The position numbers and the translations under genes are program-made. Below are positions 6,415-53,520 of a stretch of 64,000 bases of DNA, piece by piece. Under the pieces are notes generated by a model. That model did no database searches. It saw nothing but the letters and a program-made list of their open reading frames with translations, and was not told where the DNA came from. This DNA comes from Blasia pusilla (Eukaryota), in the NCBI GenBank assembly GCA_050084515.1, contig CM114271.1, forward strand, positions 3,162,001-3,226,000, in the 5' to 3' direction. The stretch's first letter is position 1; each line of letters begins with the position of its first letter.

Positions 6415-9400
6415 ATGGCCTCGGGTCGAACGGGAGGGGTGATCAAGCCGATTGACAGAGGTGCGGTTCACAGGATCTGCTCTGGTCAGGTTGTTCTGGA
6501 CCTAGCCACTGCTGTGAAAGAGCTTGTGGAAAACAGCCTCGACGCTGGAGCCAGCAGCGTGGAAATCCGTCTGAAGGACTATGGCATGGAGCTCATCGAA
6601 GTGGCTGACAATGGTGCGGGTGTCGCTCCGGAGAATTACCAGGTGGGTGGGTGGGTGGATAGATTCATTGCACAGCCTGTCAGTGGAATTCTAGCAGTGT
6701 GCCCGCTATCGACGCAGGAGCTAGGAATTGAATGAGACCTCTACCCTCAGGGCCACGCAGCGAGTCGTGGAATTGGTTTCATCGAGCAGACGGTAGAGAT
6801 AGAGAATCCTTGTGTTTGAGACAGATGGAGTCCATGTAGTGACTGACCTGTTGTTGAGTCTCAAGTGAACCTGAGCTCTGGGATTCATGGAGAGTGTAGA
6901 GGGAAGAACCTAAAAGTTCTTCAGTCGATCATCGCCTCGCACACACCTTTTTCTTCGAAGTCTCGATCCGATGAGAGATGGATGCCCCTAGAGTCACTCT
7001 GAAGAAACATCTACTGGGTACCTTCGTTGCTGGTCATTGCAATGCAGGTCTTCCCAGTGCTGTTGCTTCTCGAGAATCACTCAAATGAAAATTCTCGAAG
7101 ATGTGATGTGAATTGAATGAGGGTGGAACTGAATTGAATTAGGGGTCTAGCCCATTTTCTATAGAAGTGAAATATCCGACTTGATTGATTCCTCGAGTGC
7201 CCTTTGTTTTTATCATTTGGTGGGTTCTATCATCCTCTATGCTCCCCTTGTTTTTATCATTTGATGGGTTATCCCATCCTCTTCCATCCTTGCTGTCTCC
7301 TCTTCAAAAGGGAAGAAAATTGACACCCAAGATCTTCTTGAGTGTGGGTGGGTTCCCCATCCGAGAGCCTATTTTCTTCAGAGGTGAATTGATGCCCAAG
7401 TGTGGAAGGGTTCCCCATCCGAGTGAGCGAATCTGGAGATCAGGAGGAGGATAGCTTGCATTTCTCATTGGAGTGGACTTAGTTTCAAGAGCTGGGCTGA
7501 AGTCGATGAAGAAGTCGCGACAACATAGATGGGCTTGGAGCTTAGGCTGGAGAGTTGATCACGAGTTGATGTGTTTGCAGGGTTTAACTCTGAAGTACCA
7601 CACGTCAAAGATATCGGAGTTCGCTGACTTGCAGACGCTGTGTTCCTTCGGATTTCGAGGAGAGGCGCTGAGCTCTCTGTGCGCCTTGGCAAATATGAGC
7701 ATTGTGACGAGAACCAAGGATGAGCCAATCGCATCGCGTCTGGTTTATGATCACTCTGGGGTTCTCATCTCACAGGAAAGAGTGGCACGCGCTGTTGGGA
7801 CGACTGTGGCTGTTGCGAAGCTGTTCTCACCTCTGCCCGTTCGCTTCAAGGAGTTCAGTCGCAACATTCGGCGAGAGTACAGTCGTCTATTGTCGATACT
7901 CCAAGTAAAGTCCTTGCACATACAAGTGCTTACTGTTTTCATCGACTTCCCTACTTCTACTTTGGGACACTGGTTCTCGAGATACTTTCACTATAGCTCT
8001 ACTAGGCTTTGAAATCTACATTGTTTGAGTTTTTTCTTGCTCTGACCTCACGAACTGGACAAGTCGGTGATCTACTGACAGTAGAGTATCTTCTTCAGGG
8101 AGGTCTGGAATTTCTGATCGACTGCATTTTATTTTCTTACACTTAGCTACTGGGACTTCTCTCGTTTTCCATGTCTTTGAAAATCACATCTCCCAAACTC
8201 TGTGGAGCTGTTTGATTGTTTGGCCCAATGACATGTTTCCATCCTCCCCCATCTGAGAAGAAAGTTGGTGGTTTCAGGCATATGCATTGATTGCAAAAGG
8301 CGTCAAGCTTTTATGCAGCAATCAAACCGGTCGTGCAGGGCGAACCACTGTCGTGCAAACTCAGTGCAATTCAACCATGAAGGATAATATTGTTACTGTC
8401 TTTGGAACAAAGACAGCAGCGTGTATGGAACAGTTGGATCTTGCTGTGTCGGATGGTATTCGTGTAGAAGGATTTGTTTCAAAGCCAGGTGCTGGCTGTG
8501 GTCGCGCTTCCGGAGATCGACAATTTTTCTACATCAATGGCCGACCTGTGGATATGCCAAAAGTGGCAAAGTTGCTCAATGAGCTTTACAGGTCCTTCAA
8601 CTCACTGCAGTACCCCATGCTGGTTCTCAACTTCATTCTTCCAACCACAGCTTATGATGTCAATGTGACCCCAGACAAGCGGAAGGTCTTCATACATGCT
8701 GAAGGAGCACTGATGGTGTCTCTGAGAGAGGCTTTGGAAAAAGTTTATGCCCCTAATAAGTACCAGTATACTCTCAATAAGCTGGATGGTGGATCTGTGT
8801 TTGAGAAAGGTGAACTTTCAGTGAAGAAAACTAGTGGACAGGCTGGCTCAAATGCAGAATCAGATAGAGAAGATGCATCTGACGGGGAGGAATATGAAGA
8901 GAACAGTGAGGACTTTGTAAACAAACCCAGGGAGGTCGGTCAAACCGGAACCGGTCTTCCAGGCAGATTTTCCATGGATCTTCTTTCTTTTGAACGTAAG
9001 TCTACAAGTGGGCTGAGTAGCAAGACTTCCAACACTAAAATTGTTCAGAAACCTGTGTCTTCTAACAAGGTTCTGGCTGACAAACAGTCTGTAAAATATG
9101 TTCAACCCACACTCACTGCCTGTATATCCAAAAGAAAAAGAAGTGTAGAGGAAGCAGGTGGTGGTCTCCTAAGTGAAGAGCCTCTTCTGAAGAGGTGGGC
9201 AATGGGAAACCCAGCAAACAAACCTTCCAGTGATACATGTAGCGAGAGTGTTCAACCAAGCCTTCATCACTCTGAAGTGGAGGTTGGCGATGCAGGAGGT
9301 CATGATTCCTTGGGAACAACTATTGGAAGTGAATGTGCGACATCTGTGTCGGAGAGTGGTCCATGCCCTATCAATGGCATGGCAAGTTGTGGTCCGGTGC

Positions 9401-12400
9401 CTGGATCTGATGGGGAGGTAAAGGCCCTTAGTACTTGGATTAAGCTGTGCACATGATCCATGAAGGTTAGCAAGTTCTTGCACCAATTTTATATGGTACT
9501 GATACATCTGAACTTCTGGTGATGCAGATGCAGACCCAACTCATGAAGTTGCCGAGCTTTTCTTTGTCAGAACCAGTACTCCACAATCTGACATCTGAGA
9601 AGTGCAGGGATGATATTGAAGGCCTGTCTTCCAGGCTAAAGTGTACGGTGGATGATGAAAATGGAGCGGGAGCCAAACTGTCAGAGCGAGTAACCGAGCC
9701 ACCTGAACTAGGCTTAGCTTCCGAATCAAGGAAAACTAGACCTCTAGAAGCCACAACCATCAAAGGTATCTTTGATCCAACAGGGAAGATGATGATGCCT
9801 TGTACGAAGTCTAGAGGAAAGGATTTCCTAGAGACCTCAAATGTTGAAGGAACAAAAGGTCAAACACAGCCAAGCAGTGAATTAGGAAGATCAAACACAT
9901 TTTCAGGGGCATCAGAGTTTGCAGATGAACCTTGTGATACATCGGGCAAAGGTGATAAAGCCAGAGCATCATCAACACTCTTCTCATCCAGGGCAACCAA
10001 TGCAGATGGTCACAAGACTACAGCAGGACATGAGGATGAGATGAACCCTGTCATCGAGAATCCAACTGTTCAATTTGATATTCAGAAGTTGAGGAAGAAC
10101 TTTCGGCGCGGCTTGCTCCTTCGTCAAATGAATGAAAATATGAATAGAAGAGTCAGGAGTTCCAAAAGAGCCAGGTGAGGGACAATAGTTGCTCCCAGCT
10201 TTGCCTTCATAAAAATGGATCATCACCTTAAGATTTTGGATCTTTGTGTGGCATCTGTTTCCTTCTAAAGCTCTGAGTATCCCCTCATAAATAAGATGTC
10301 AGTATTTCTGGAGAACCAGTTCCCAAATCTTTAAACAGATAGACGAAATACTGAATCAATCTACTGGTAGTTTCATTAGAGCCACAAAAAAACATGACCT
10401 GACCTAAAAACTGTGTTGTGCCACGAGTGGAAAATCTCACAACTTCTGCGATTCAATTTTGTTACATCTTTTAATTCCTCACACTGACATAGCTTTTGTT
10501 ACGATGGCAACAGTTGTTTCACAGCTGCAACTTTACTCAGAAGCGACATTCAGAGTGAAGGGATAGAGAAAGAGGCAGCACTAGCCGCAGCAACAAAGGA
10601 GCTGGACCGGAGTTTTAATAAAGCCGACTTCAAGCAAATGCAGGTCACTACCAATCTGGTTTAACACTTTATCATGTTTGCCAAGAGATCAGTATGAAAG
10701 GAAGAATTGATTTATTGTCCATGGGAAAACCCCAGAGTGCCATGGGACTTGAAATTACAAAAATCCTTGGAGTGTTTAGGTAGACCGCACCATGCAAGAA
10801 AAGGGAAATGAAACCATAGAAACCAGAAGCTACCATTCCTATATACTTCACTCTTATCACCCCATACACTGATGTAACAACTTAGTTATCTAAACCTGAT
10901 TGCTATTGGACGTGAAAGAGATCACAAGTGCAAAGGAAGTTCCCTGGAACAGTTCAGGGAACTTGCCTCGAATTTTCTCACAGAAGCTGCAATTGAAGGG
11001 GTACCATTCTTCAGGGTCAATATCATGTGGAGGGATACCCACTCTCAGGAACTTAGAGAGCTACTTCCTGCCTTCAGTGGTTGCTGGAGTTGGGCCTCTT
11101 GCCTCATAAGAAGACGTACTCTGCATGGAAGACCTCTTGTGAAAGTCACAACCCATCAAGTTTCCTTGTGTTTGCTGACTCTATGTCTCTTTGGTTTTTC
11201 AAGATTAGATGGAGTTGTGAGCCTGACAAGAATTCCTTTGACAGGTGCTGGGACAGTTCAACTTAGGCTTCATATTGGCCAAAATCAATCAAGACATATT
11301 TATTGTTGACCAGGTTTGGCCCACCAACCAATTTGGTCCCGTTAATTGTATAATGAGAGAGGGATATCCACTCTCTGGAAGGTAGAGAGTTACTTGCTAC
11401 CTGTGGAGATGCGAAGGAACCAAATTTCTAGCTACCAGCTAGTCTTGAAGATGGAAACATTATCATACTACAGAACTTGGTAGTGACTAAAACTGCTTGA
11501 GGTCAAGTGTGATTTCTCTGTTCTTGCAGCATGCTTCGGATGAGAAATACAATTTTGAACGACTCACAAAAACCACAGTGCTGAATCGACAACCTCTCCT
11601 CAGGTCTATATCGACTAATAATCCTTCTTACTAGTGAAAATGTGTCGTTTTGCACGTTTTTCCAAGTAACTCTGGATCTTGTTGCAGATTTGTGAATATA
11701 ATTCTTGATACTCAAAACTGATAGGACTAAAGATTCTAAAGGGTTGCTTTTCCTTTGACAGCCTATGACATTCAACTTGCCATCTACACAGGCCATTGCC
11801 CTTGGAGCTTTCTGCAGCAGATGAAATTACTGTAACAACACACTTGGAGACTTTCAGGTGAGACATGGGACTCTCAAGAATAACAAAAATGAACAAGATA
11901 GTTGTTACAGAGATTCTCTTGCACCTACATTCACAGCCCCTTCATTGCCTTCGAACTCTTTCTGCTTAACCCTAAAAGACATCATTGAGAGTCTCTCCAT
12001 CCACCAAGATCTGTTCTTGTCAAGAATCTGGGCAGAAAACCATATGTTTTGCTTTCACTGAATCAGAAATTGAATTGTACTCACTTTGTAACTTTGCAAC
12101 TTCATTTGAGGTTGTGACCTGTGCTATTTTCAAAAAAGATTTTTCCATTTTTTTTTTAATTGTGATCCCCGATGCTCTCTCATCAGAAAAAATGGCTTCG
12201 ATTTTGTTGAGGCTGAAGATGCGCCAGCAGGTCAGAGACTAAGACTGTCAGCTGTGCCATTCAGCAAGAATATGACCTTTGGTGTTGGAGGTATGCACCC
12301 TGTTCCGAAAAGAACAAAATTCATTCAATGGTGTTGTTACCACAAGTCGTACTGCGGTCTTGCAAGGAACTCGATGTGGATGACTGAAAGAAGAGAATTT

Positions 12401-15221: not shown

Positions 15222-16807
15222 TTACAAGGAATCTGTCATGAGAAATGCTCTTATGCGTTGCAGCAGTTCAGCCTTGACGTTGTCCGGCACCATAGCTGCA
15301 ACCCAGTGACAGAAACATGTAAATCCCAACCATGCTTCATTGAAAGTATGAATATTGATACAATGGCAACCACCACAATAATGATCGGGCGCCTCAAGCT
15401 CTGCTTATGCAGATTCACCGTGAACAATCATATATTCAGAATGGCATCTATTGGGTAATATTGGCAGTAGGAACTTAGAAATTCCACGCTCCACGTCCAT
15501 AAGATGAGTGAGAAATGAGATGAGTGAGAAGTTGATCTAGATACCTCGACCTTTGGGGGTGATGTTGCGTACAATCTCGTCTACTGTGATATTCCCTCTA
15601 CCCTTTTTCCTAGTAAACGCCCGACACTGGGCTTTCAGCTCGTCCCTCCATCCACATTCAATTAGTCTTTCTCGCAGAAGCTCCTTTAATCGCTCCTTTT
15701 CTCCACTTTCTATCAACTGCCGATGAGCAAGTGGTACCAAATTTCAGCAATTCTGCAATTGCTGACCCTGTCACTTCTTTTACAAGCTTCAAGCCCATCC
15801 TTATGCACTAGGGCAGAAAGTAGATTCGTGATTTCGGACACGCTTTGGTAGTAACATGAGTAGAGGTCAACTGAACAGCCAAGTCACCTTAATATTTATA
15901 ATTTCTTGAAGAGTTGGCTCAGCCTCCTTGTCTTCGTCCGCGTCAGGAGTTGGTGGCCGATTGATTGATGCCCTCCTACAAATCCAGTGACATTAAGCCA
16001 AAGTCATTCAACTAGGACATTTGACAAATTACCACCCTACAAACTCCACAACATCACGGATGGCTCGGGTACACCCGACTGCCTTGGCCAGAAATAGGAA
16101 TTCTAATCAAGCATTCCACATCTGCAGATCACTTGACAGACTTACGCAACAATAAAACCATCAAAGACACTATTCCCTCTCCCGAACTTCTCACGCTCAC
16201 GGAATCACGCAACAAATTCTTGAGGACGTGGACATGGTAAGTCTAGCGAGGCATGATCACGTTCCCGCCCCATGGAAAACATCCTCCACAGAAACCTCGC
16301 CACACACAGCCCTAAGCTGTTCCATACCCCATACTTTCTCGAATATCTCTGTCACGCTTTCTCCTGACTACGCATTCTCCTGTAAGCGACCTTCTCATAA
16401 ACGGGAGATCAAAGAAAGAAACAAATACAAAAAACCGGGAGAACCGCACCCTAAACCCTGAGAAGTTCCAGGCCCCGTATCTTATCAGACATCTCCACTC
16501 TTTCTCCAAACTCAGCATCCTTCCCTAAGCGACCTTCTCATGAACGGGCCCATAGAGGAAGGCGAAAAAAACGCAGACAGAGAATCGCCAAACAGTACCG
16601 CACCCTAAAACCTAAGCAGTTCCAGGCCCCAGACTTCCTCAACCGTCTCGTCACGCTTTCTCCCCAAGCCTAGAATCCTCCCGCAAGCGACCTTCTCGTG
16701 AACGAAACAAAGCAAACAGCAGACGGAGAACGGCCACACACACACACACACAGAATCCCACCCAACCAGACGGACGTGGCCCACAGGTCGAGATTTCGAG
16801 CTTACAT
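15222..16807 (-). CDS. ENY2: ENY2/SUS1 transcription and mRNA-export factor (SAGA DUB module/TREX-2), 4 coding exons
   Basis: Spliced product MRASINRPPTPDADEDKEAEPTLQEIINIK LIESGEKERLKELLRERLIECGWRDELKAQCR...ITPKGR AMVPDNVKAELLQRIRAFLMTDSL*. Exons 16807-16806 (AT), 15975-15888, 15716-15545, 15295-15222. Confidence 0.93.
16295..16710. repeat. Three diverged tandem units of ~145-160 bp in ENY2 intron 1
   Basis: Core AAGCGACCTTCTCRTRAACG at ~16384, ~16527 and ~16685. ACCGCACCCTAAA..CCT..GTTCCAGGCCCC at ~16443 and ~16597. Confidence 0.85.
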
Positions 16808-17721
16808 AGCTGCTTATGATTTCAACACGACGCCAGTGCGGGGCCTGTGACCCTATCTGCTCTTCGGTATCAGGATCTCGCAGTGTTGGACATCGTCCGC
16901 ACCTTTCACTGCATCGTGGCGTCTTCGTAGTACAATCCCTGCATTCCGCGTACAGTCCTTAGCGTTCGGTACACAGAGAGCCAAATTATGTTGGCACTCT
17001 AAACTTTCATTAGAGAAACGTCGAAGCTTTGGACGACCAAACCCTCGCGAACGCGAAAACAGTCACCTTTGACAACTCGGACTTCCTTCGAAGGGCCGGA
17101 CTTATGGACATGCTTCACATCTTCGATTTATTTATTTATTTATTTATTCCCTTGCTATGTATGGATGGATTATAGGGGTATTCTAAATCGCTTGGGGTAA
17201 GGAATTAAATTAAAGAAGTATTTAACTAATCCTCGAAAAAATTTAATTGGCCTTTCAGATTAATTCTGGATAATCTTATTGGCTGAAATATTGAATCATC
17301 CTATTGGTTAAAAAGGTGGAGTGTGAAGAGGAGAGGTATTTGAAATTCCAAGGGGCACTCTCCAATAATAATGGGCATGAATTGCATCTTCTAATTTATT
17401 TATTCCCTTGCTATGGATTATAGGGATATTCTCTATTTTTTTTATAGTTAATTGTATGGGGAAAATAGAATCATTGTTGTTTGTAGTTGTGAGTATTCTT
17501 TGGGGCATGAATGAAAGATTATTTATTTCCTCCTTTTGGGAAAAGTTTGCTAGCTTTTTGGTTTCTCCTTTTCGGTTTGTTCTTTTTTCTTTTCTTTTCG
17601 AAAGGTCACCATATGGTTCCCTCCATTTGGAAAATCATACTCCCTACCTCCTAGTTTTCCAAAACAAACAAAAAATCTCCATCCTCTCTTTACCGTTATG
17701 AAAGAAAAAGTTACCCTTCCA

Positions 17722-18043
17722 TCTATATTATAATTTGAGAAGCGTTTATGAAATGACAACTTCAAAATTAAACACTTGTCTTTTTGAATTTAGGATTTTT
17801 ATCACACCTGGCACTTTTCTTACTAACCTGGCGTGTAAATCTTTGCTATAATTTGAGGAGCGCTTTTGACATGGGGATAGCTTCAAAGTTAGACACATGT
17901 CTTTTAGAGTTAGGAATTTATGACACATGGCACTTTCTTTTACTAACTGGGCCCGAATATGTGTATAACTACAGGACCGGGCGAGTATATATGTACATGA
18001 TTGCGCACAATGCATCGCATGGTTCCTCACGGGTCCTAACTAG
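17722..18043 (+). mobile_element. Non-autonomous mini-Helitron (probable)
   Basis: 5' end A|TCTATATTA, 3' end CTAG|T preceded by a degenerate hairpin, and an internal ~120-bp tandem duplication (17728/17847). Confidence 0.6.
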
Positions 18044-18080
18044 TTCTTCATTATTATTTTTGAGTATGTGTTGTACATGG

Positions 18081-18217
18081 TGTCGTGCCCATACACATCG
18101 CTACACAACATACATCGTTGGTCACATCCACACCACACAACACCGATCTTCCCCACATACGGGTACATCCACACATGTACAGAAATCAACTCATACATAT
18201 ACTTGGAGATCACACAA
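18081..18217 (-). repeat. Terminal repeat Y, copy 2 (3' end of element, ends ...CACGACA)
   Basis: Aligns with 18702-18820. Confidence 0.9.
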
Positions 18218-18699
18218 CAAAAATCAAGAGTAGAAAAAATGGCACACCCGGCCTAAAACTCCACTCCTCAATCTACATCGGCATATCGAGCCTCGTCCAC
18301 CCTATGCTATCAAGGAATCTAGACGCTAGCACCTAGTCTTAACTCACACACACGAGCAAGAATGGTACTCCAACGGCCCAACGTGAGAAAGATGCCTTGG
18401 AAAAGCCATCTTCCTCCCTCATATAAGTTTGGGAAGAGCCAAAAGGCTCTTCCCCTAAAAATAGCTATCCTCTTGGTAACCTGCGCGCACAGGTTACCAA
18501 GGGTGGATGACCTGCTCAACAAGTCACCCGATAATGAAAGACCTCATTAGGAAAGTTCTTAGACACAATGTTTCTAACACAACAGACCTATCTTCAACCT
18601 CATCCGATACTTCGGGACAAAGTTACACTCAAGACAGTCCGCTAGCTCCTATGCCTTATCCACAATAGATCTCGGCCTTTCGGCTACTCAGATGTGACA
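18218..18699 (-). repeat. Terminal repeat X, copy 2 (starts TGTCACATCT on the minus strand)
   Basis: Aligns end to end with 27081-27564, roughly 85-90% identity by eye over the ~120 bp compared base by base. Confidence 0.92.
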
Positions 18700-18701
18700 A
18701 T

Positions 18702-18820
18702 TATCGTGCGCATACAGATCGCTGGTCACATCCACACCGCACAACACCGATCTTCCCCACACACAAGTAGATCCACATATGTACAGAAATGAACTCATAC
18801 ATATACCTGGAGATCACACA
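18702..18820 (-). repeat. Terminal repeat Y, copy 1, directly after the polypurine tract
   Basis: Aligns with 18081-18217. The minus strand reads AGGGGGATGAT|TGTGTGATCTCC (PPT-like tract 18822-18831). Confidence 0.88.
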
Positions 18821-18898
18821 ATCATCCCCCTAGATGGCAATTGGATCCCCCTAACTCCAGATAGAAAATATCACATCTCCTTGACATGACCTACAACC

Positions 18899-19040
18899 CT
18901 ATACATATCTCGGACATATCCATCGTCCTGTGGGAACTACATCAAGAGGGGGGTCATACATGACATATGCCACCCTCAAGAACAACCAACACATACCAAC
19001 ATGGTGGCTGCACCCCTCGTAGATCCGCACAACATACACC
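18899..19040 (-). pseudogene. PHD finger at the C-terminus of the retrotransposon integrase
   Basis: CMLCGSTRGAATMLVCVGCS*GWHMSCMT / PPLDVVPTGRWICPRY, a C4-H-C3 pattern with one stop, one frameshift and the last Cys changed to Tyr. Confidence 0.88.
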
Positions 19041-19049
19041 TCAAGCTTG

Positions 19050-21980
19050 CGGGTACCACTTCCAAGCTCGGATCCGTTGTCTCGTCCACGTTTGGAAGGT
19101 GACATGGCAAACAGTTGCACACCTAATCCTTCCAAACCATACCATCCCGTCCCTCCAACATGAGGACTCTGGTCGATAATACCTCACGCATCCATAGGAT
19201 CGTGCGCCCTGCAGTGACATCTAGCGTCATGGATACCACCTGTTGTAAAAACACGTAATCTCTAGAATGAAACCTCCTAATCCCTGGACGATAACCTCCT
19301 CGACCAATGGTTGCGTAGCTCAATGTATCCCTATGTTGAGCAATAGCTAAGTTCTCAAAGGCCATGGGCATAACTCTACGAAAAATCTCCGCCCTTGAGA
19401 ACATGCTTGAACCCACACATCTGGATCATCAAGATCTAATACCTCTGCCATGTCACGTCAAGTAGCTGTAGGTAAATCTGGCTCTCTCCCAAAGAGCAAA
19501 AAGTATGGTGAAAATGACATCAAGGATGTCTGCCGATTAAAGCGATAATCCATAGCAAACCATAGCAACTGTAGATCCCACTCCCTCAACTGTCCCCGCT
19601 GCAAGCCATACTTGCGCAATCCTCTCATCACCGTTTGTACTACTCTCTCCACCAACCCATCTGCCTCAGGATGATCTCTGGATGTGGTGCGGTGATCTAT
19701 CAGCGTCTGGTCATACAAGGCCTGAAACTCTCCCCTGAACTCGGTACCCTAGTCAATCAACACCTCCGCCTGTGCACCAAAGTGACTAAGCACACGATCT
19801 AGAAATGCAAAAGTTTTTCCCTTGCTTGCCTTTTCCGGGAGTGCCACCAACTCTATCCACTTGGAGAAATGCTCCACCATGACCAACACGTACTTGTGAT
19901 GATGCTCCGTCACTGTCAAAGGTCCCGCGAAGTCTAAACTCCACCGATAACCTAAACCCATAATCGGTAAAGGATGTAACTACGGAGTGGGAGCATTGAA
20001 GGATGCTCGAACTTTGTCATATATCATACATCTGGCCACAAATTGTTGTACCCGAATATGCATGCCACACCACCAATACTGAACATAGAGTAAGCTGTAA
20101 GTACGCTTTACTCCAACATGCCCCAACTCCTCATGGGCATGTCGCACTACACGTGCTTGCTATGAAGGATGAGGTGCCACTCGTATCCTACCATCTCCCC
20201 ATACCCGCAAAATGTGAGTCCCCTCCCACCTGAACCTCCTAGCTCTCTATAGGATATGATCCCGTTGCCTAGCACTCACAGTGCTCGCTATGATGCCAGT
20301 ACGCAAGAACTCCACCACCTCCACGTCGACATGGATATCTCTACCACGTGTTACCTCCTCACCGACCTATGGATCCAAAGACTCATTATCCGACCCCACC
20401 ACTAGAGCCACCGCCTGCGGTTGACCTGCTATAGTCAACCAACAAAGATAGGCAGATGCATGCCAACCGAGCACCATCTCCCCATCACTCTCTCCGTGCC
20501 ATCGAGCTCCTGTGTCGTCTCTCTAACTCAAACATGGGTTACGACTCAACCCATACGCATCTTGGTTCAACCAACCTGGCATGTGAACCACCTCAAACTC
20601 ATACTCTTGTAGTAATATAGCCTGCCTGGCAAGCTTTCCCGCAAGCTTGTCGGACTCCATCAACCACCTTAACGGCTGATGATCAATGATAAGTGTGAAA
20701 GGGTTGTCGGATAAATAGCACCTGAAATGTGCCACGGCCCACATTGTAGCCAAGCACTCTCCCTCATAGGAGTTGTACTTTGCCTCTTCAATGTTGTTCG
20801 ATCACCTAGCGTAAGCCACAACGAACTCCCTCTCCTCATCATCCTTGTGAGTAAGCACTGCTCCTAGACCCAACATCCTCCAATCCGTATGTAGCTCGAA
20901 TGGGCGACCTCTTACCGGTCTCTGTAAAATGGGTGAGGATGTCAACATGTCCTTGAGCTTCTAAAATGCTTGCTCTTGATCATCTCCCCACAACCAAACT
21001 TGATCAAGTCTCGTCAACAAGATCAAAGACTTCGCGATCGCACTAAACCCCTTGACATACCGTCCATAGAAGTTCACCAGTCCTAGAAACACTCGGACTT
21101 GACTCACATCTGTAGGGCGTGGAATCTTCGAAATAGCCTCCACCTTCAACTGTTGAATACCTAACCCACTCGGGTATATGGTGTGTCCCAAATACTCAAT
21201 CTGCTCCTGAAAGAATCTGCACATGTCTTGATGTAACTTCAATCCATGTAATTGCAATCGCCGGAACACCTCCTCCAGGAGTCGCTCATGCTCCTCAACC
21301 GTGGAACTGAAGATAAGAATATCATGTATGTAACACCATACAAAATCCAAGCCAGCCATAATCCTATCCATCACTCTCTAAAACTTTGCAAGCGCGTTCT
21401 TCAACCCAAATGATAAGAACCGCCAGTGATACAGAGAATCTCTCCCAAATCGATCTATCCCCTATAATATTGTCTTCTCCTTGTCCTCCAACCTGATAGG
21501 AAGTTGATGATATCCAACACGGAGATCTAAAGTACCAAAGATCTTTGCATGCCCTACCGCATCAAAAATCTCCTCATGAGTAGGCATGGCGTATCGATTT
21601 GACCTCGTCTAACGCTTGATATGACAATAATTTCCACACATCCGCCTATCCGTCCAATTGCCATACATATCCTTCTTTGCCGGCATGACTGTGGCAGATG
21701 CATACTCCCCATGTGATAACTCCACAAGTCCTTCCTCCAACAAGTCTTGACTCCTACTATGAATCAAGGCTCGCTTCATCTCACAATACCTGTAGGATCG
21801 ACGAAAGATCGGTGTATCACTAGCCAACTGAATTCGTATGTTGGGACCCTTTAGTGTACCCAAGTCTCTCATACTAAAGGCAAAACAACTGAAATGCCCT
21901 CTCAAAAACCTATGAATCCGTCGTCGCTCTCCTCTTGTCAACTTAAGACCTATCACAAGCTCCCAAGTCTCCATCATGAC
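19050..21980 (-). pseudogene. Gypsy pol remnant: RT, RNase H, integrase
   Basis: ORF pieces 21609-21977, 20961-21374, 20523-20753, 19749-19961, 19458-19718 and 19123-19416 carry canonical motifs, broken by stops. Confidence 0.93.
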
Positions 21981-22284
21981 CTCACTCAGAGAGGACGCAA
22001 CCTCCGGCTTTGGTTGCTATATAGCAACCCTAGCCACCTTCGCAATAGCCACTCCTCTCAGACCTCCTACACCATGCTCCACATCCAAAAAATGAACATG
22101 TGTTGCTCTGACCATCTTCGCACTCTCCACTCAAACGACGTCCCAGGAAGTCCATGGGTGCTTATCTCACCTCGTCCCGCCCCTAGCCAATGCCTCTACA
22201 GACCTTGTAAGCAATGCTCCAACTTGTGGAAGTGACGGCATGGATGACACTCGCATCCGTCTCTACTTAGCCATACCTAGGCTG

Positions 22285-22899
22285 ATTATTCATGTGAGAC
22301 AGTTGAGGTCCATCGCTTGCCCCAACACCTATCTCCGGGATGCCTCACTCATACTTGGCACCGCTGTAGTACCCGTAGCAAACCCCATGGCGCGCTCGCG
22401 CTCATTTTCCATAGGGTCCTCCAATGCTCGAGTCACCTCATCCCAAATCATGTGTGGCCTCTCCGTGACGAAAGGCATGGGATGTTGGGAAGCTCACCAA
22501 CGGAGATAAGGGTGTCCTCAACTCCCCCACCCTATTGGCTATCGCCAACGGTGGTCTATCATCCCACGTCACCACTTGAGATTGGCGCCTTGAGCCCAAA
22601 ATAGCATCCACTGTGAGATGTGGTGCTCTATGAACCAAATGAATGGTGCCAACTCTATCGAGATCTTGCGCCCCTACCAAAGAGATGTCAGCGGGTAGTG
22701 TATCCTCATACCCCTGTACTACAGATACCAACAACAACTCAGAGTACCTTTGGACCAATCTCGCCATGTGACGTAATGATACTTGCCCTAGGGTCTCATC
22801 TCTCTCCACATAAGGGTATTGATGCACCCATATGCCTACCTGCAATATCATAGCTAATCCGGTGCTAATCCCTCCAAAGAGATCTAACACCCTAACACC
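22285..22899 (-). pseudogene. DNMT3/DRM-like C5 cytosine DNA methyltransferase domain inside the retrotransposon polyprotein region
   Basis: Motifs I-III: GVRVLDLFGGISTGLAMILQVGIWVHQYPYVE...DISLVGAQDLDRVGTIHLV. After a frameshift, motifs IX-X: ERERAMGFATGTTAVPSMSEASRR*VLGQAMDLNCLT. Motifs IV-VIII are not found. Confidence 0.85.
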
Positions 22900-23279
22900 C
22901 TCCTCTGGACAGTGCCACACAATAGATGTGTTATCCAGTGGTGTCAACGTCTCCACTCCAAGAGCCCCATTTTCACCTAACTCTCGCTGCTCTAGGATAA
23001 AGGCATGACTCCACGCCTACCTCACAAGGTCGTTGACACTCCTCTGTAGCTCTCGAGTCGTTCGTACCCCACAATGGTGAAGAGGTCTTGCCAACATGGG
23101 AAGAGACACTCGCCATGGCCTGTCTCTCTGTGGGACTATCCGCTACTAGGACATCCACCGCATGTGCGTTCCTCTCCAACAATTCTCCTCTCCAGATAAC
23201 ACTACCTGTGAAAGTTTCCAACGTGGTCACAGACTCGTCTCGTGATCAACCACCTTGTCCCGCAAACTGCACCGGTAAT

Positions 23280-25800
23280 TGATTCATCCGCCTTCCACCT
23301 TACAACCACCCTGGCTCATAAGCAACACTCTCCTCCTAGAAGTCAAGGATGAATCCTAGGGGATATAGCCTTGTACTCCCCACCAACACATCGTACGACT
23401 CAGTCAGTGTCGTAATTGCACGTGTGTGCACCATAGCAGTATCTGTCGCATGCTCTGGTTGGACTCTAACAGCTATCTCTTGTTGAGTCATATACTACAT
23501 TGGTGACATGTCCCCAATCGAGGTCTGTATCTGGAAGGAACAAGGCTCAATGTTGACCTTCGGTAACCCCAACGCTAAACACGTCGCCTTCCCTAACATC
23601 AAGGGATGCGCTCCCGAATCAAGTAGGACGCGTTGCGGGTGATACACTGTCCTTGTCGGACTAACCAAGCGAAATACTCCAACTCGATTATCCAATAACA
23701 TCACGCAAGGTGTCAGCATGGCCCGCTCTATGGCCGGTTGAGCTGGCGTATCTACCAACTTCGCCGCCGCCGCATGCCATGACTCTATGGGGGACGTCCC
23801 GAGCACTTGCTTCGAGGGAAAGTCCACCACCTCCTCAACTACCTTTGAACGAGAGCCAGTCACCTCTCCACGCTCACACAATGTGGCAGCCAACCGGAAC
23901 ACCTCAGCTGGTCTAACTCCCGATGTCACCAACTCTATGGCAGAAAATAATGGAGCCTGGCTCACCATGGTAGCCACCTCCAACACTATGGTCGATAGTG
24001 ACTCCACTCGAGCCGGCATAGGAGCTTCCACTCCAACTCCTTATGACGTCGATGCACCCGCCTGACCTGTAGGCACTACTGGTTGTCGAGACACTATCAA
24101 TGGTGTGTGAAGTGCCTCTGACAACGTGAACGATTGTGGAACCGTGGCTTGCCACCCATCGGTCCCCTCGGTGGGTCAATCTCAACTCCACCTCTCGATG
24201 GCTCAGTGCCTCTCGCAGCACCCTGAGTCATCGCCGCAGCAGCCTCAACATGTGTTGCACTACACATTAGCCCCATACTAGCGATATCCTCACCCGGGTC
24301 ATGGTAAGAGGTAGAAGGTGGAGCCACACTAGCTACTCGCGGCTCTGTGCCTTCCCTGAGCTGCATCATCGTCATGGCAGCAATCCTCTACTCCAACTGA
24401 TCGATGCACGAGTGAAGCGCCGTCTCTAGTGCTCCCACTCCATCTCCTCTGGCACATGGTGGTCCTCTACCACCACGTCGAGGAAACAACTCCTCGACCT
24501 CCTTCAGGAAGCGCCCCTAAGCCTTCGGCCTACCTCTAGACGTGCCTCTCGACGAAGGTCAAAACTTCTATCCCTAATGTGACCATATCTGTGGCAATAG
24601 TCACATTGGTACTATGGTGGAGCCATCCTCTACGGCTCCTGAATAATCGGAGGTGCTCGTGGTCCCCTCCCATGCTGTGGGCAGTCTCTCTGCCTATGGG
24701 CCTCTCCACACGTCCAACAAGACAACATCAGTACCTGCTGGGCAACATATGTAGGTACGGGTCGTTGCCTCATAGGCTCACAGTACCCGCCCTGCTCTTT
24801 AGGCACACAGGCCGGCTCCCATGGTACTGGTGCTCGTTGTGGCACATGTGGGGTCACGGTCGCTCGTGGACCCGTCGACTCTCGAGAAAATCCAGTGGTC
24901 ACTACCTGCTCCTCATTCATGTTGAGCTCAATACGCTCAGACAACTCAAAGATCACCTTCAATGTGGGCTTCGCTATGTGAATCAGCACCGCATCTCAAA
25001 CTCTCCTCCGTAGTTCTTGGTCCAGAGTCCCGTACCAATAGCAATACTGGATTGATTGCGCCTTAGTCACCCCTTAAGTAGCAATGATCAGCCTCCTCAT
25101 GCGCGTGAATGCCTCTCTCAGACTCTCACCCGATCCTCACTGAAAATCTCAGAGACTCTTGACTTTTGTCGTGCACGCCCTGGTAGCTCTTCCCCAATTG
25201 TCGAAAGAACTCCACTGTGGGACTGAAACTGGGTGGCCCTCTACCACCAGAGGTCTTTGCCACATTGCCTTTCTCATTGCCCTCCTCTCCATCTAGTCTC
25301 CGGGCTGATGGTGTGGGTCTCTCTCCTCTCACGATCCCATCATATGCCTCGCGACCACTAGTGGACACATACCCTCGAGCCCAATACATCCTTTAGGCAT
25401 CAATCTCTCATAGATATAGTGATTGAAACTCCATGTAATCATCCATCGGAAGACCCTCTAAGTGCTAGAACAACCCCTTCCATACCATGAAAGGGTTGAA
25501 CCGTGTCGGGGCCTGTATCTCCTAGAAATTGCAACATGTGTCAAACTCTTGGATAAAGTCATCTAAGACAATGGTGTGGATTGCACCCAAAAAATGATGC
25601 ATGCCCCGGTGGCCCATATCGTCCATCTCCTGCCAAATGACATTGCCTCCGTCTGCGATCTCGTCACCACACCTGTTGTCTAGTAATGACGATCCAGCCA
25701 CGGAAAGATGTCGAGCTAGCTCCTCACTCGTAACCCCTCGGTATCTCACTCCACTCCGTGTCACACCACTTCTACTACTCGTACAACCCCGTTCTTTCAA
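23280..25800 (-). pseudogene. Gypsy gag and aspartic protease remnant
   Basis: CX2CX3HX4C knuckle and VLLDSGAHPLML, in fragmented ORFs. Confidence 0.8.
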
Positions 25801-27080
25801 ACGTGGGAAGAACGCCGTGATAAAAACCCTGTCTCACCCGCTCAAGCACTCAGACTCACCAAGAGTCTCCCATACTCCTCACTAGCTCACCGACACTAAT
25901 GGTAATCTGGTGACGACATGCACACTCAACACTCGGGCTCACCATGAGCTTCCCAACTAAATCACCTAAACCACTGACACTCTCGGGTCATACACGTGAT
26001 ACCTACTCGGCAACCGCCCTATATCCACATACATGCTACACATGCATGGAGACTACACTCGTCATCATCGCTACACCCGTCTGGCCCCAAAAACTACCCG
26101 ACACCCAACACTCTCAATCACATAAGACAAGTGCGGGAAAAGGGACTCGAATGAATAACCTTATCACGCCCTCCAACCTATGGCACAGTCAACACTCACT
26201 CCTCCCTGTGATATGACAACCTCCGCACCCCGACACTCCCCTTGAACCAACACGTCGAACCTCCCATCAACATCGGAGTATATGTCTCCATCAGAATCCT
26301 CGCAAATCCCAGCCACGCCTGCAACATATCACGTGCAAAAAAATCTCTCCGCCCTCCCCCAGACGCGCCTCGTAATCTCAACTCAACCCGGGACGAACTC
26401 AACCATGTCGACCCGTTTATCACGTCACTCGTGCCTCTGCCACGTCGCCCTACTACGTCCATCTTGGCCCCTACTACATCAATCCGCCGCCCTGCCCCTA
26501 CCACATCCGCTCCTCCACATTGCCTTACTACGTTCACTCCATTGACCACGTCGAGAAGGTGCCGACTACAGCACTCCCAACCACTTAAGGGGAAAAAAGG
26601 GGGGCAAATGGCTTGGCTTGCGTACCTATGGGCCTTAATGGCCCTTGGGGGGGGAGGGGTACGTGGAAGGGAAGGGTCGTGGCCAAGGGCCACGGCTTCG
26701 CAGCTCGCTGCCTCCGGCTCTGTTACCTGCAACCTAACCCTAGCCCTAGGCGGCTACGCCCTAGCTTGGACGTCCTCACGGCGGCTATGGTGCCCCGACC
26801 TAAGCTTCTCCTTCCGATTTCCGGACACTTACCGCTACTCACTTGCGACCGTCCTTGATACACTCTGCGCTACACCGGAACACTGCACTCTGCTGCTGCC
26901 TCCAGTCAGTTTGCACCCACAAAAACGTGAGAAAATATACATCGCTTCCGCCCACAACCTTCTGAACGAAAAAATGACAACAAAAATACCAACCAGGGTC
27001 TCCACGGACTTCCCACCGAGGCAACTTGCTTGCCTACTTGGTAACAACGAATTCCCACCAGCCCCATGACATCTTTTTCA

Positions 27081-27564
27081 TGTAAAAACAAAGAGTAGTA
27101 AAAATGGCACACCCCGCCTAAAACTCCACTCCTCAATCTACATCCGCACATGGAGCCTCGTCCACCTTGTGCTTTCAAGGAATCCAGACGGTAGCACCTA
27201 GTCCTAACTCACACACACGAGCCATAATGGTACTCCAACGGCCCAACATGAGAAAGATGCCTTGGGAAAGCCATCTTCCTCCCTTATATAGTGTTGGGAA
27301 GAGCCAAAAGGCTTTTCCCCTAAAAGTAGCTATCCTCCTGGTAACCTGCACGCATAGGTTACCAAGAGCGGATCACCTGCTCAAGAAGTCACCCAATTGT
27401 GAAAGACCTCAACAGGACTCTTGTCAGAAACGATGTTCCTGACACAACGGACCTATCCCCAACCTCGTCCAACACCTCGAGACAAAGTTGCACTCGAGAC
27501 AGTCCGCTAGCTCCTATGCCCTATGCACGATAGATCTCGGCCTATCGGCTACTGAGATGTGAAA
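27081..27564 (-). repeat. Terminal repeat X, copy 1 (5' end of element; putative promoter)
   Basis: Aligns with 18218-18699. TATATAA on the minus strand at ~27284-27290 is conserved in the copy at ~53117. Confidence 0.9.
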
Positions 27565-29367
27565 ATGGAGTTAATAAGGCTCTCAAAGTAAAAAGGGTTC
27601 ATCAAAATTGGCCATGTATGGAGGAAATATTCCAAAATTTTCCCTAATGCATTGTTAGACAAATATTTATTTGTAGTTGGAATGACATATGTCAAACATT
27701 GGAGGATAAGGAAAATAAAAAAGGTGTCCTCCCTTACTAGCATTTTTTTTTAAAAATCATTTACTTTCTTATTTGTTTATGTTTTTGTTTATTTATGGGT
27801 GGGGGGGAGTACCCCTTTATTCCCCACTTCAAAAATATGAAAATCCTCTCTTCCTCCCTCCTTCCCTTAATTCCCTCTTTTAAAACTTTCATCTATTTTT
27901 CTCTCCCTATCCTTGCTTACTCTATCAAAGTTTTCAATTCCTTTTTAGAATATAGACTTACACCATTTGGCTTGTTAGTATTCTTAGGTATCCCTTCATC
28001 ATCGAATACGATCACATGAGTTCGCCTCTTACCACCATTGTTATCCATAACTTCTACCATTGAATGTGAGTGGTAACAAGTGTACTACCACTAACAATGG
28101 CTTTTCCCAAAAAAATTTAACAAGGGATTCTCTTCTTGGTTGTTTCATAAGGGCTTTCACTACTACATTTACTGCTAGTTTGTGATTCTTTGTAGTCTTA
28201 GATTATTCACAAAGCAATTGCAAATAATTCACAAAGTATAAGTTTTGTACTCACAAATTATGACAACTTTACAAATGAAAAGACTTATTTTGTTACACTT
28301 ATATTGCTCTCACAAACCACTCACGAAGTGCTCAAAAGGTTACGTTTTCTAGAGTTTATGAGTAGATTGGATGATAGATGTATAATAGTGCAACTAACTT
28401 GCAATGGACTCAAAAATTAATCGTTCTGTTACATAGTAAAAAGGCCTTGCCCTACACAGAATTTGATCAAGTTTGACTCTTGCATAGCACCACGCGCCTA
28501 GTTTCTGCAGACTACCTAGGAAAGGCTTGTTGCTTGTTGGCCTCTAAGGCCCTTTAGTTGTTAGGAGATGAAGGAAAGGGCATGGATAACACTAGAATAC
28601 ATAGGCCGCTACGCGTCTGCTGCTTATGCGCCTTGTTATCCGGAATTTTGGTGACACTACTTCAAACATTCTATTATGAATTGAAAAACTGTAGTAAAGC
28701 TATTTCATCTCACACTCTTATTTACCTCCCTATATTTGTCCCTCTTACATCAATTTCATCCATTCTAAAGCTTTATAGCTCCCATGAGTAGTTTTCTTGA
28801 AGCAACTATTTAATTTTTTGAGTTTGATCTATATCGGTCACAAATTTAAGTGATTTAAACCCCCATTAGTAGTTTGTTCTCTTCTCATCCTAGCTTTGGT
28901 TTTGGTCGTCTCTTATAATTTGGTGTTTTACACTTTGTATGAGTAGGTCCATTGGACTTCATTGCCAAGGATGTGATTGGCATGTCTATTGAAGTTGAGT
29001 GTCCTCCTTGCCTAGAATCTTGCCTATAGAAGAAGCCATAAGATAACTTTTCCAATCTCCTTTGAATCCCATGCAACATTATGAGTGTCGTAGATATCCT
29101 CCAAAACAAATCTACTCTAAAGAGAGGTGCAACATTAGCAAAAGTACAATGGACTTGGTATTAAGAGTCCAAATACATCTAAAGTTGGCAAGAAAGGCAC
29201 AAAAGGAAATCTAGAAATTTGGAAAGATATAAGTAAAGTACAATGTGGGTTGAATACGTAGGAGCGGATTTCCTAAGCCTTACAATTAAGGCTAAGAACC
29301 CCAATATGTTCAATGGGGAAATCATATATTTAAACATCAAGGATGGCCATTTCCATCTCTATCCCTT

Positions 29368-29650
29368 TGTCACATCTGGTCTCAATGTATGTGCGTGAGT
29401 TTGTTTGGTTTATGGATGGATCGACCCGTGTGTTATGAAGATCGGTGTTGTGTGGTGTGTAGATGTGATCAATGATGTGGGTTGTATAGCAATGTGTATG
29501 CGTACTACAACGTTGTAGGGTCTCGATGTATATGCATGAGTTTGTTTGGTTTATGGATGGATCAATCCGTGTGTTGGGAAGATCGGTGTTGTGTGGTGAG
29601 TAGATGTGACCAACGATGTGGTTTGTGGAGCGATGTGTATGCGCATCACA
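29368..29650 (+). mobile_element. 283-bp deletion derivative of the same retrotransposon family
   Basis: Begins TGTCACATCT (X start), contains two tandem Y-like units, ends ...GCATCACA, and is flanked by a perfect 4-bp TSD CCTT (29364-29367 / 29651-29654). Confidence 0.85.
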
Positions 29651-30096
29651 CCTTGTTTTTATCCATGATCTTTTTATATTCCTAATATTTTTAAGACAAT
29701 TATGATTTTTGATTTTTTTAAGTTTAAGAACATTAGTGACCCAATAAATTTTTATTGGAAATGCCCTCTTTGAGCTCTATTGAATCCTCGTTAAAAGTTT
29801 TTTTTGGTCTCATATTATCCATAATGCCTTTTGCTTTGCCTCTAAATATATATTTTCTTGTTTATATGTCTGATATCGTTCTTCCCCTTTGCCCTAACAT
29901 TTTCCTTGTATATCTTTTTGTCAACATCATTCATCCATCTATCCTTGTTCTCTTGCTAAGGAGATAGGAAAAAAGTGTACGCATATATATGTACCACTGT
30001 CATGCGCATACTCATCAATGTATAACATACATCTTTGTCACCGAAGACACACATGATCCCATGCTAACTCATGGCATCCAAACATCCTAAATCCAT

Positions 30097-30097
<1 letters not shown>

Positions 30098-30153
<56 letters not shown>

Positions 30154-30272
30154 GTCAAAACAAACCCTCTCTCCTAATTAGAGCCTTGGGTTAGGGTTAC
30201 ACAGAAAAGGCAAGGAGAACCATAGCTCCTCTACCTCATGTTGAAAGGCTCAACAGAAAGATAATGAACTCT

Positions 30273-30351
<79 letters not shown>
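30098..30351. repeat. Two (CT)n microsatellites (~30098-30151, ~30277-30351)
   Basis: Visible directly. Confidence 0.98.
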
Positions 30352-52844: not shown

Positions 52845-53520
52845 TGTCCCATCTTAATAATCGATAGGTAGAGATCTATCACGGCAACAACATAGATAGC
52901 CAATGGACTCTCGTGAGAACTATTTCGTCCCGAGGTGTCGGATGAGGTTGAGGATAGGTCCGTTGTATCAAGAATGTCATTTCTGACAACTATCCTATTG
53001 TGGTCTTTATAGTCGGTGACTTGTTGAGTTGGTAACCGCCCCTTGTAACCTGTGCACGCAAGATACAAGGAGGATTGCTATTTTTAAAGGAAAATCTTTT
53101 TGGCTCTTCGCAAACTTATATAACGGAGGAAGATGACTTTTTTCTCGTGTTGGGCCATTGGAGCACCTCTCTTGCTCGTGTGTGAGGTAGGATCAGGCTG
53201 GTAGCGTCTGGATTCCCTCATAGCAAAGGGTGGACAAGGCTCGATATGCCGATGTAGATTCAGGAGTTTTAGGCCGAGTGTGTCATTTTTATTCTGATTT
53301 TTATATGATAAAGAAGCGAGGGGCAGGGGGAATTCGTTGGTTGCAGATAAGGCAAGCGAGTTGCCTCGGTGGAGATCCCCTGGAGACGTGTGTGTGACGG
53401 GTGTTTTATCATTTTTTGTACGGAAGACCATACGCGGAAGTAGTGTTTGTTTTCCGGAGAATTCGTTGGCATAGCTGGACGGGAGAGAACAATAAAGTGT
53501 AGCGGCAAGAACGCTTGACG
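52845..53520 (+). mobile_element. 5' remnant (repeat X plus leader) of the same Gypsy family, opposite orientation
   Basis: Begins TGTCCCATCT and aligns with the reverse complement of ~27564-26860, including GAATTCGTTG..AGGCAAGC.AGTTGCCTCGGTGG. Confidence 0.85.

Follow-up and report, generated by a model that had tools for sequence, protein, structure and literature searches.

Split direct repeats on a decayed Ty3/Gypsy-type retrotransposon of Blasia pusilla with the insertion signature of a DDE integrase

Introduction

Split direct repeats are regarded as diagnostic of tyrosine-recombinase retroelements, which insert without a target-site duplication (TSD), and software for finding long terminal repeat (LTR) retrotransposons presumes two full LTRs. 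A stretch of 64,000 nt of the Blasia pusilla genome (assembly GCA_050084515.1, contig CM114271.1, positions 3,162,001-3,226,000, forward strand; hereafter the window, whose coordinates are used throughout) holds on its minus strand a decayed copy, about 9.5 kb long, of a high-copy Ty3/Gypsy-type retrotransposon. In this element, here called copy 1, a long repeat, X, and a short repeat, Y, are arranged as X...Y-X-Y, and the coding region includes a DDE integrase. The locus thus raises the question of how a retrotransposon with such an integrase came to carry split repeats, and by which route it was inserted.

Here, we describe the repeats, ends, coding content and relatives of this element. We show that the X...Y-X-Y layout is real, that it was present when the copy inserted, and that the TG..CA-type ends and the 4-bp TSD are the signature of a DDE integrase, unlike that of a tyrosine recombinase. 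The best explanation, which we hold to be somewhat probable, is that a permuted YX-internal-YX molecule was inserted by integrase after opening at an internal Y|X border.

Results

Repeat layout and borders of copy 1

Read on the minus strand, the order of the locus is flank-CCAT, X1, leader and coding region, a purine-rich stretch, Y1, 2 nt, X2, Y2 and CCAT-flank (Table 1). The initial annotation of the window, made from the sequence alone, had placed the four repeats at these coordinates, and a repeat search, BLAST and reading of the sequence agree with it. The repeat search returned direct repeats at 18219-18518 and 27084-27383 (90%, ungapped) and at 18114-18217 and 18718-18821 (91%), and BLAST aligned X2 with X1 at 87.6% over 483 nt and Y2 with Y1 at 90.1% over 111 nt. 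Global alignment gave 87.3% identity over 482 aligned columns for the X pair (Kimura two-parameter distance, K2P, 0.140) and 90.0% over 120 columns for the Y pair (K2P 0.108). From these identities of 87% and 90%, both pairs are approximately as old as the insertion, and since the two K2P distances are close to one another the duplication of Y is no recent rearrangement. The repeats follow the A1...B1-A2-B2 plan; two complete LTRs are lacking, the 5' end consisting of X only and the 3' end of Y-X-Y.

Neither BLAST nor direct reading found Y-like sequence upstream of X1, as the annotation had proposed. CCAT lies directly outside both X1 (27568-27565) and Y2 (18080-18077), so that the whole X...Y-X-Y unit is enclosed, again as first described; at fixed borders, all four letters would agree by chance with a probability of 1/256. 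Insertion without a TSD, the tyrosine-recombinase trait, is therefore not what is seen here, a 4-bp duplication being present both at the full copy and at a solo unit described below. The element termini, T(G>T)TCAC...CGACA, are of the TG..CA type: X1 starts with TTTCAC where X2 has TGTCAC, and X1 ends with TTTTTACA. The Y units start with T(T)GTGTG. A TATATAA motif and the likely transcript start lie inside X1, and upstream of the TATA box both X copies have an inverted repeat of about 30 nt, GGTAACC..GGTTACC, that could form a hairpin (18472-18501 and 27339-27368).

Predicted borders of reverse transcription

The candidate primer-binding site directly after X1 is complementary at 10 of 11 positions to X positions 306-316 (approximately 27249-27259), which lie 31 nt past TATATA; only the TATA position serves here to predict the transcript start. 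Pairing at 10/11 was reached in 8 of 2000 shuffles. The homologous sites of two related copies in the window, copies 2 and 3, pair at 9/11 (349/2000 shuffles) and 8/11 (1139/2000), neither of which is significant. Judged by this complementarity, the 11 nt after X1 suggest Tf1-like self-priming, with the end of U5 (the unique 5' region of an LTR) at the end of X. Furthermore, the end of X is the exact start of a conserved leader in all three related 5' ends of the window.

At the other side, about 80 nt separate the end of the coding region from a purine-rich stretch bordering directly on Y1, which is a candidate for the polypurine tract that had been proposed there (9/13 purines directly upstream). 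The 13 nt taken before X2 (18719-18707, inside Y1 and ending 5 nt before its last base) include 6/13 purines. With the purine tract marking the start of Y and the primer site the end of X, the repeat defined by reverse transcription, and hence the LTR that it makes, would be Y-X, and the integrated copy would consequently be YX-internal-YX in circularly permuted form. Its integrated ends stand one Y unit (137 bp plus 2 nt) away from the primer-site and purine-tract borders. Two other assignments were considered. An LTR of the form X-Y was rejected on the grounds that the junction between the end of X and the leader is conserved in three copies. Additionally, Y as an ordinary 3' untranslated region beside an LTR consisting of X was judged unlikely; Y has approximately twice the internal read depth and Y2 lies inside the TSD.

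Related ends and copies in the window

Three further loci in the window have ends related to those of copy 1 (Table 1). The solo unit, from a related family, ends TGTCAC...TCACA, again of the TG..CA type, and is flanked on both sides by CCTT. Its Y units are 77-80% identical to Y2, and at their junction stands a perfect 14-bp palindrome, CTACA-ACGT-TGTAG (29505-29518, plus strand); only 6 palindromes with arms of at least 7 occur in the whole window. This palindrome looks like an LTR-LTR circle junction, that is, two integrase-type ends placed head to tail with 2 extra bases each. Long (CT)n microsatellites lie near the solo unit (30090-30150 and 30270-30350). Copy 2, which starts with TGTCACATC, has an internal deletion and is truncated at its 3' end inside the PHD region, and copy 3, which starts with TGTCCCATC, has the leader start of the other copies and is then truncated; neither has a Y upstream. 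Searched against a protein atlas, a piece of the copy 2 integrase matched only generic rve clusters from animals and fungi.

All four left ends (copies 1, 2 and 3 and the solo unit) are X starts, TGTC(A/C)C, next to unrelated flanks, and the flanks before the 5' ends of copies 1, 2 (37071) and 3 (52845) are unrelated and AT-rich. Both right ends, those of copy 1 and the solo unit, consist of a Y unit terminating in ACA, next to which lies a 4-bp duplication (CCAT and CCTT, respectively). The layout of copy 1 is probably no one-off, given the matching end types and separate TSD of the solo unit, the several hundred family copy equivalents and the X-to-Y junctions of other genomic copies, and given that its closest protein relatives are Gypsy polyproteins with a C5 cytosine methyltransferase (DNMT) and a PHD finger, a kind of element for which DIRS-type repeats have been described in KnitGypsy-Dnmt3.

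Family-level evidence from sequencing reads

Raw reads of a sequencing run, X9, which is possibly the source sample of the window itself, were mapped to 17600-27950 at an identity of at least 82%. The unique flanks were covered about 2.5x and 1.5x and the internal bins of the element (18984-26249) about 740-1,710x, with mate orientations summed; this difference indicates several hundred copy equivalents of the family at that identity. Y depth, estimated from the same bins, is approximately twice the internal depth and similar to that of X. In addition, 151 reads at least 99% identical cover the stretch. Copy 1 differs from the family reads by transitions at 1346 places and by transversions at 539, an excess expected of long-methylated, decaying repeats.

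Among the joints listed, that from the end of Y to the start of X (27562 to 18081) was supported by 172 reads, 159 of which have 4 letters between the two sides, in variants of 77, 35, 32 and 15 reads. The commonest form of this Y|X border on the element strand, ..GACA-GC-TGTC.., is a 10-bp palindrome. A second Y-to-X joint, 18701 to 18081, was listed with 22 reads. Past the end of Y2, 2810 reads extend with a consensus resembling a diverged X start and an agreement of 0.49, where the five other top sites among the loose ends listed have 0.80-0.88. The value of 0.49 would fit a mixture of Y-to-X borders and Y ends that stand before unrelated flanks.

The opposite junction, from the end of X to the start of Y, is found in contigs of another run, named run X1 (distinct from the repeat X1), in at least three variants on four contigs, with depths of 34, 18 and 14 against about 3 on unique flank. 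The split joint of this kind in the raw X9 reads (18217 to 27083) is represented by 1 read, a count that leaves aside reads crossing X2|Y2 contiguously.

Coding content and protein relatives

A search with the stretch from reverse transcriptase (RT) to integrase returned 62 longer proteins. The best two, P0001 (45% identity, E 3e-231) and P0002 (44%), carry DNA_methylase (PF00145) and PHD domains beside RT, RNase H and integrase; further relatives occur in the protein set of a green alga. The order in P0002 is protease (663-711), DNMT (953-1137), RT, RNase H, integrase and PHD (2300-2344), and by tblastn this protein is collinear with the element from 23803 to 18914, including the DNMT flanks at 22962-22462 (35-48%) and the PHD end. 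The listed Pfam sets of the 62 relatives include no tyrosine recombinase, and rve is present in the intact relatives. Protein similarity assigns the element to this DNMT- and PHD-bearing Gypsy group.

Copy 1 itself is badly decayed, with 150 stops in one frame and an LTR divergence of 13%. When six frames were searched against Pfam with stops read as X, RVT_1, RT_RNaseH and RT_RNaseH_2, Integrase_H2C2 and rve were matched in Gypsy order in a single minus-strand frame. The DDE integrase of the initial annotation is accordingly present (rve E 1.4e-9, Integrase_H2C2 E 5e-11), and open pieces likewise gave matches to RT, RNase H and rve (the last at E 1.2e-7). The absence of a visible tyrosine recombinase also held, no Phage_integrase match being returned in six frames at E <= 0.01, and no Pfam family of any kind was matched on the strand opposite to the element. 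The predicted coding order is gag, protease, decayed DNMT, RT, RNase H, integrase and PHD finger.

Within the DNMT segment, P0002 residues 928-1037 and 1152-1211 align by tblastn at 35-48% identity; P0001 residues 227-324 align there too. Pfam gave no DNA_methylase match in copy 1, and we therefore regard the segment as a decayed remnant. The PHD match scores 20.6 bits, under the Pfam cut-off of 24 bits, and lies in another frame than RT and integrase. By tblastn, this segment aligns to the PHD ends of P0001 and P0002, whose own PHD fingers are clear in Pfam (E 3.8e-8 and 5.8e-11, respectively). The finger occupies the position, after the integrase, of the chromodomain of chromoviruses, and a literature search found no account of PHD-bearing plant Gypsy integrases.

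De Mendoza et al. (2018, PMC5890265) reported KnitGypsy-Dnmt3, a Klebsormidium nitens Gypsy retrotransposon whose Pol includes a Dnmt3. In that paper, the legend of Fig. 1e gives the DIRS arrangement as 'A-coding region-B-A-B', and that of Fig. 4c describes KnitGypsy-Dnmt3 as combining DIRS repeat structure with Gypsy domain composition. A 2026 preprint uses the wording 'streptophytes (Gypsy-DNMT3)'; within the literature searched, the term was found in these two papers only. The element described here likewise has DIRS-type repeats with Gypsy domains, the Gypsy-DNMT3 trait according to the legend of PMC5890265, and is a new high-copy member of this little-described kind. The layout is thus already known for the group, as a remark in the passages of that paper available to us; copy 1 newly adds a TSD, end motifs, a palindromic border inside the LTR and the positions of primer site and purine tract. 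The initial annotation had set split repeats, as a trait of tyrosine-recombinase elements, against Gypsy elements with two LTRs: the copy does have a DIRS-type layout, but on a Gypsy element this layout has a precedent in KnitGypsy-Dnmt3. No other precedent came up when the literature was searched for split repeats with integrase, for permuted LTR elements and for plant two-LTR junctions.

Viral contigs were scanned with P0002 alone, which gave no match, and with an alignment of 12 relatives, which gave four loci (L002-L005). Two of these have identical terminal overlaps, that is, assembly-collapsed repeats, and two have no direct repeats of at least 40 nt, so that the layout is not readable in them. 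A metagenome match to the Y|X border pattern (L001) was rejected as due to chance, the bacterial contig having 57% GC and no similarity to the element. Rfam and tRNA scans of 17000-38000 found no ribozyme, tRNA or RNA family and returned two sub-threshold miRNA matches only, for which reason a retrozyme-like reading was dropped.

Features of the window

The coordinates of all features are collected in Table 1. Either an insertion or a segment particular to a subfamily could account for the low-copy stretch of the leader; a 285-aa open frame on the opposite strand (26212-27069), with no Pfam match, overlaps this stretch. A tandem repeat of three units of about 146-154 bp (16294-16706) lies 1.4 kb beyond the 3' end of the element. 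Two host genes were recognized on the plus strand: an exostosin GT47 glycosyltransferase (54839-56257, E 5.9e-42), which follows shortly after the copy 3 fragment, and a gene of which a large exon encodes the C-terminal domain of a MutL-type mismatch-repair protein (8257-9456, E 6.7e-25).

Table 1. Features of copy 1, in element order, and of related loci in the window
Feature	Position	Strand	Evidence
5' TSD copy, 4 bp, CCAT on element strand	27565-27568	-	Direct reading; same as 18080-18077
X1, 5' repeat, 484 bp	27081-27564	-	87.3% identity to X2
Candidate self-priming primer-binding site, directly after X1	27070-27080	-	10/11 complementary to X positions 306-316
Low-copy stretch inside leader, copy-specific or of a small subfamily	26250-26941	-	Read depth 5-28x against about 740-1,710x elsewhere
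Protease-region homology	23270-23803	-	tblastn of P0002 residues 611-791; Asp_protease_2 of P0002 at 663-711
Decayed DNMT segment	22278-22962	-	tblastn with P0002 and P0001
Reverse transcriptase, RVT_1	21177-21578	-	Pfam E 1.3e-18 with stops as X; E 6.6e-11 on open piece
RNase H, RT_RNaseH / RT_RNaseH_2	20601-20990	-	Pfam E 5e-25 and 3e-25
Integrase, H2C2 zinc finger and rve catalytic core	19668-20168	-	Pfam Integrase_H2C2 E 5.2e-11, rve E 1.4e-9
PHD finger at integrase C-terminus, broken by stop and frameshift	18914-19038	-	Pfam E 4.6e-4
Candidate polypurine tract, upstream of Y1	18821-18834	-	9/13 bases before Y1 purine, GGGGG run
Y1, internal short repeat	18702-18820	-	90% identity to Y2; 17-nt deletion near Y1 end
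Spacer between Y1 and X2, 2 nt	18700-18701	-	Direct reading
X2, 3' copy of long repeat	18218-18699	-	Repeat search, BLAST, global alignment
Y2, terminal short repeat, ends CGACA	18081-18217	-	Repeat search, BLAST, global alignment, direct reading
3' TSD copy, CCAT	18077-18080	-	Direct reading
Solo unit, related family, 283 bp	29368-29650	+	Initial 11-12 nt of X followed by two Y-like units
Copy 2, related element	32030-37071	-	X 65%, internal region 75% identical
Copy 3, related 5' repeat	52845-53490	+	76% identical to X2

Discussion

Topologically, the layout of copy 1 corresponds to YX-internal-YX joined into a two-LTR circle or a head-to-tail dimer and then opened at a single Y|X border. 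On this basis X2|Y2 would be the point where the two reverse-transcription ends had met, as in a two-LTR circle or a head-to-tail junction, and the outer ends of the element would derive from the Y|X border inside the LTR, within U3 (its unique 3' region). We propose the following cycle. Reverse transcription would make a YX-internal-YX cDNA, with Y after the purine tract and X extending to the primer site, and circularization or concatenation of this cDNA would form the X|Y joint. Integrase would then recognize the Y|X border, in which two integrase ends stand back to back (GACA-GC-TGTC), and cut after each CA, the 2-nt spacer being discarded. Insertion of the opened molecule would yield X-internal-Y-X-Y with a 4-bp TSD. 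An RNA transcribed in the inserted copy from the X1 promoter through Y1 to the end of X2 would again be a complete genomic RNA, so that the cycle could repeat. The TG..CA outer ends, the absence of the 2-nt spacer from these ends, the 4-bp duplication and the palindromic border all fit opening by integrase. The initial annotation had likewise seen in the layout a YX-internal-YX cDNA circularized and opened at Y|X; this is supported in part, in that the permutation topology, the TSD and TG..CA ends and the palindromic border hold, whereas a circle may only be supposed as the substrate, and so may an integrase cut at the internal Y|X site.

Several observations weigh against opening at the internal Y|X border or leave room for another route. 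X2|Y2 is no clean CA|TG joint, X2 ending TTTTTG where X1 has TTTTTACA, and the Y1|X2 border of copy 1 is no longer palindromic, its best arm being 3. The cut must be presumed to fall in the leader-side LTR, since a cut at the Y|X border of the other LTR would give X-Y-X-internal-Y. The agreement of 0.49 past Y2 is indirect evidence, as subfamily mixtures or Y units in other contexts could also lower this value, and copies 2 and 3, which have no 3' ends and an X only 65-76% identical, may belong to families without Y. The DNMT is undetected by Pfam in copy 1 and the PHD match is under the cut-off, and the statement on the Klebsormidium layout is a single figure legend of PMC5890265. Finally, only one full-length copy of the family was examined, and the split X-to-Y joint amounts to the one raw X9 read, contiguous X2|Y2 crossings standing outside that count.

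These last two points favor an alternative in which the family has ordinary LTRs, each being Y-X or X, and in which copy 1 and the solo unit are rare aberrant integrations of, for example, a two-LTR circle or a head-to-tail dimer. The depth ratios, approximately 2 for Y and 1.5-2 for X to 1 for the internal region, would fit ordinary YX LTRs equally well. We nevertheless consider this alternative unlikely: both right ends and all four left ends in the window depart from the standard type, a conserved palindrome of integrase ends stands at the Y|X border in the family reads, the X-to-Y junction recurs in several diverged contig variants, and a distant Klebsormidium relative has been described, in the legend cited above, with a matching layout. 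It is similarly doubtful that reverse transcription itself, by template switching like that of DIRS or Ngaro elements, produces a linear split-repeat cDNA on whose X-start and Y-end termini integrase acts with no circle. Tyrosine-recombinase retroelements do make A1...B1-A2-B2 repeats, as described in PMC4157794, and the contig variants of run X1 share a similar imprecise X-to-Y joint, which would also fit inheritance from a template in place of fresh end-joining in each cycle; for this reason we retain the route as a rival. Yet a primer site after X1 and a purine tract before Y1 would, by the two-jump scheme, yield YX...YX, no priming site was detected after a Y that would place Y rightmost, and the Y|X palindrome would be without a role.

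The remaining alternatives concern copy 1 alone. In a copy that is this old and heavily mutated, one might suspect that a normal element had its 3' LTR rearranged after insertion, altered by a tandem insertion or wrongly assembled, and repeats are difficult to assemble. We find this highly improbable, however, in that the TSD lies outside Y2 and X1, Y1/Y2 divergence matches that of X1/X2, the Y lacking at the 5' end and the one added at the 3' end have an identical border, X-to-Y joints occur in contigs of the separate run X1, and the 151 near-identical reads cover the stretch in a run that may be the source sample. To the possibility that the element is a tyrosine-recombinase retroelement of the DIRS, PAT or Ngaro type, its recombinase decayed past recognition, we give almost no credence. 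Such an origin would account for the split direct repeats, and a methyltransferase domain is also found in DIRS elements (PMC4157794); against it are the empty six-frame search for Phage_integrase, the rve integrase with its H2C2 finger in the Gypsy position, the intact relatives with rve and no recombinase in their listed Pfam sets, and the TSD with TG..CA ends.

Integrase opening of a permuted molecule, the reading that we favor, can be set beside several known systems. The closest is KnitGypsy-Dnmt3, which has a C5 cytosine methyltransferase in Pol and, according to the legends of PMC5890265, shares Gypsy domains and A-coding-B-A-B repeats with the present element. The latter resides in another host genome (of the order of 1 Gb by a depth-based estimate) at far higher copy number, and its DNMT segment reads as a decayed remnant; the nearest listed relatives, whether or not they are Klebsormidium copies, are just 44-45% identical. 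In the available passages of PMC5890265, TSD, end motifs, border palindrome and mechanism do not appear. Ngaro, PAT and TOC elements have the repeat topology seen here, A1...B1-A2-B2, with a long repeat at the 5' end and, behind the coding region, short-long-short at the 3' end (PMC4157794). These elements encode a tyrosine recombinase, whereas copy 1 has an rve integrase, no detected recombinase, TG..CA ends and a 4-bp TSD.

With canonical plant Ty3/Gypsy elements, the element shares the order RT-RNase H-integrase, TG..CA ends, a purine tract and a short TSD; it differs from them in lacking two complete LTRs, in its offset ends and in its additional DNMT and PHD domains. Among surveyed plant LTR elements, 6.2% have TSDs of 4 bp, a length characteristic of certain lineages, and self-priming has been predicted for 12% of plant elements, notably Tcn1 (both PMC6317226). 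The 11 nt after the 5' repeat, complementary at 10/11 to the predicted transcript start, recall Gypsy elements of the self-priming Tf1/Sushi type, although a PHD finger stands here in place of a chromodomain and the primer match of copies 2 and 3 is not significant. Retroviral integrases are reported to cut palindromic LTR-LTR junctions (PMC1905944, PMC1180852 and PMC4372172); in HIV-1 and foamy virus two-LTR circles a palindromic ..CA-NN-TG.. is cut by integrase inside the circle, much as proposed here for Y|X. The X2|Y2 joint of copy 1 corresponds to the U5|U3 circle junction of retroviruses. A cut at that junction restores normal ends in retroviruses, whereas the cut proposed here would fall inside U3 and give a permuted product.

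Since copy 1 combines a split layout with signs of integrase insertion, the integration enzyme of an element cannot be read off its repeat layout. Standard annotation would mis-delimit or miss a family of several hundred copy equivalents built in this way, and the DNMT and PHD modules enlarge the small set of retrotransposons with chromatin-modifying domains. Through the internal palindromic site, the question of how an integrase could give rise to such a layout can be framed concretely and put to the test. More tentatively, and with rather more doubt than confidence, we suggest that a DNMT- and PHD-bearing lineage of Gypsy elements with a DDE integrase, extending from streptophyte algae to a plant, may normally insert a circularly permuted genome, its integrase ignoring the ends made by reverse transcription and opening circular or head-to-tail cDNA at a palindromic site inside the LTR. 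If this is true, the DIRS-like split repeats of the lineage would have arisen by convergence, and circular cDNA would be a productive intermediate of integration rather than a dead end.

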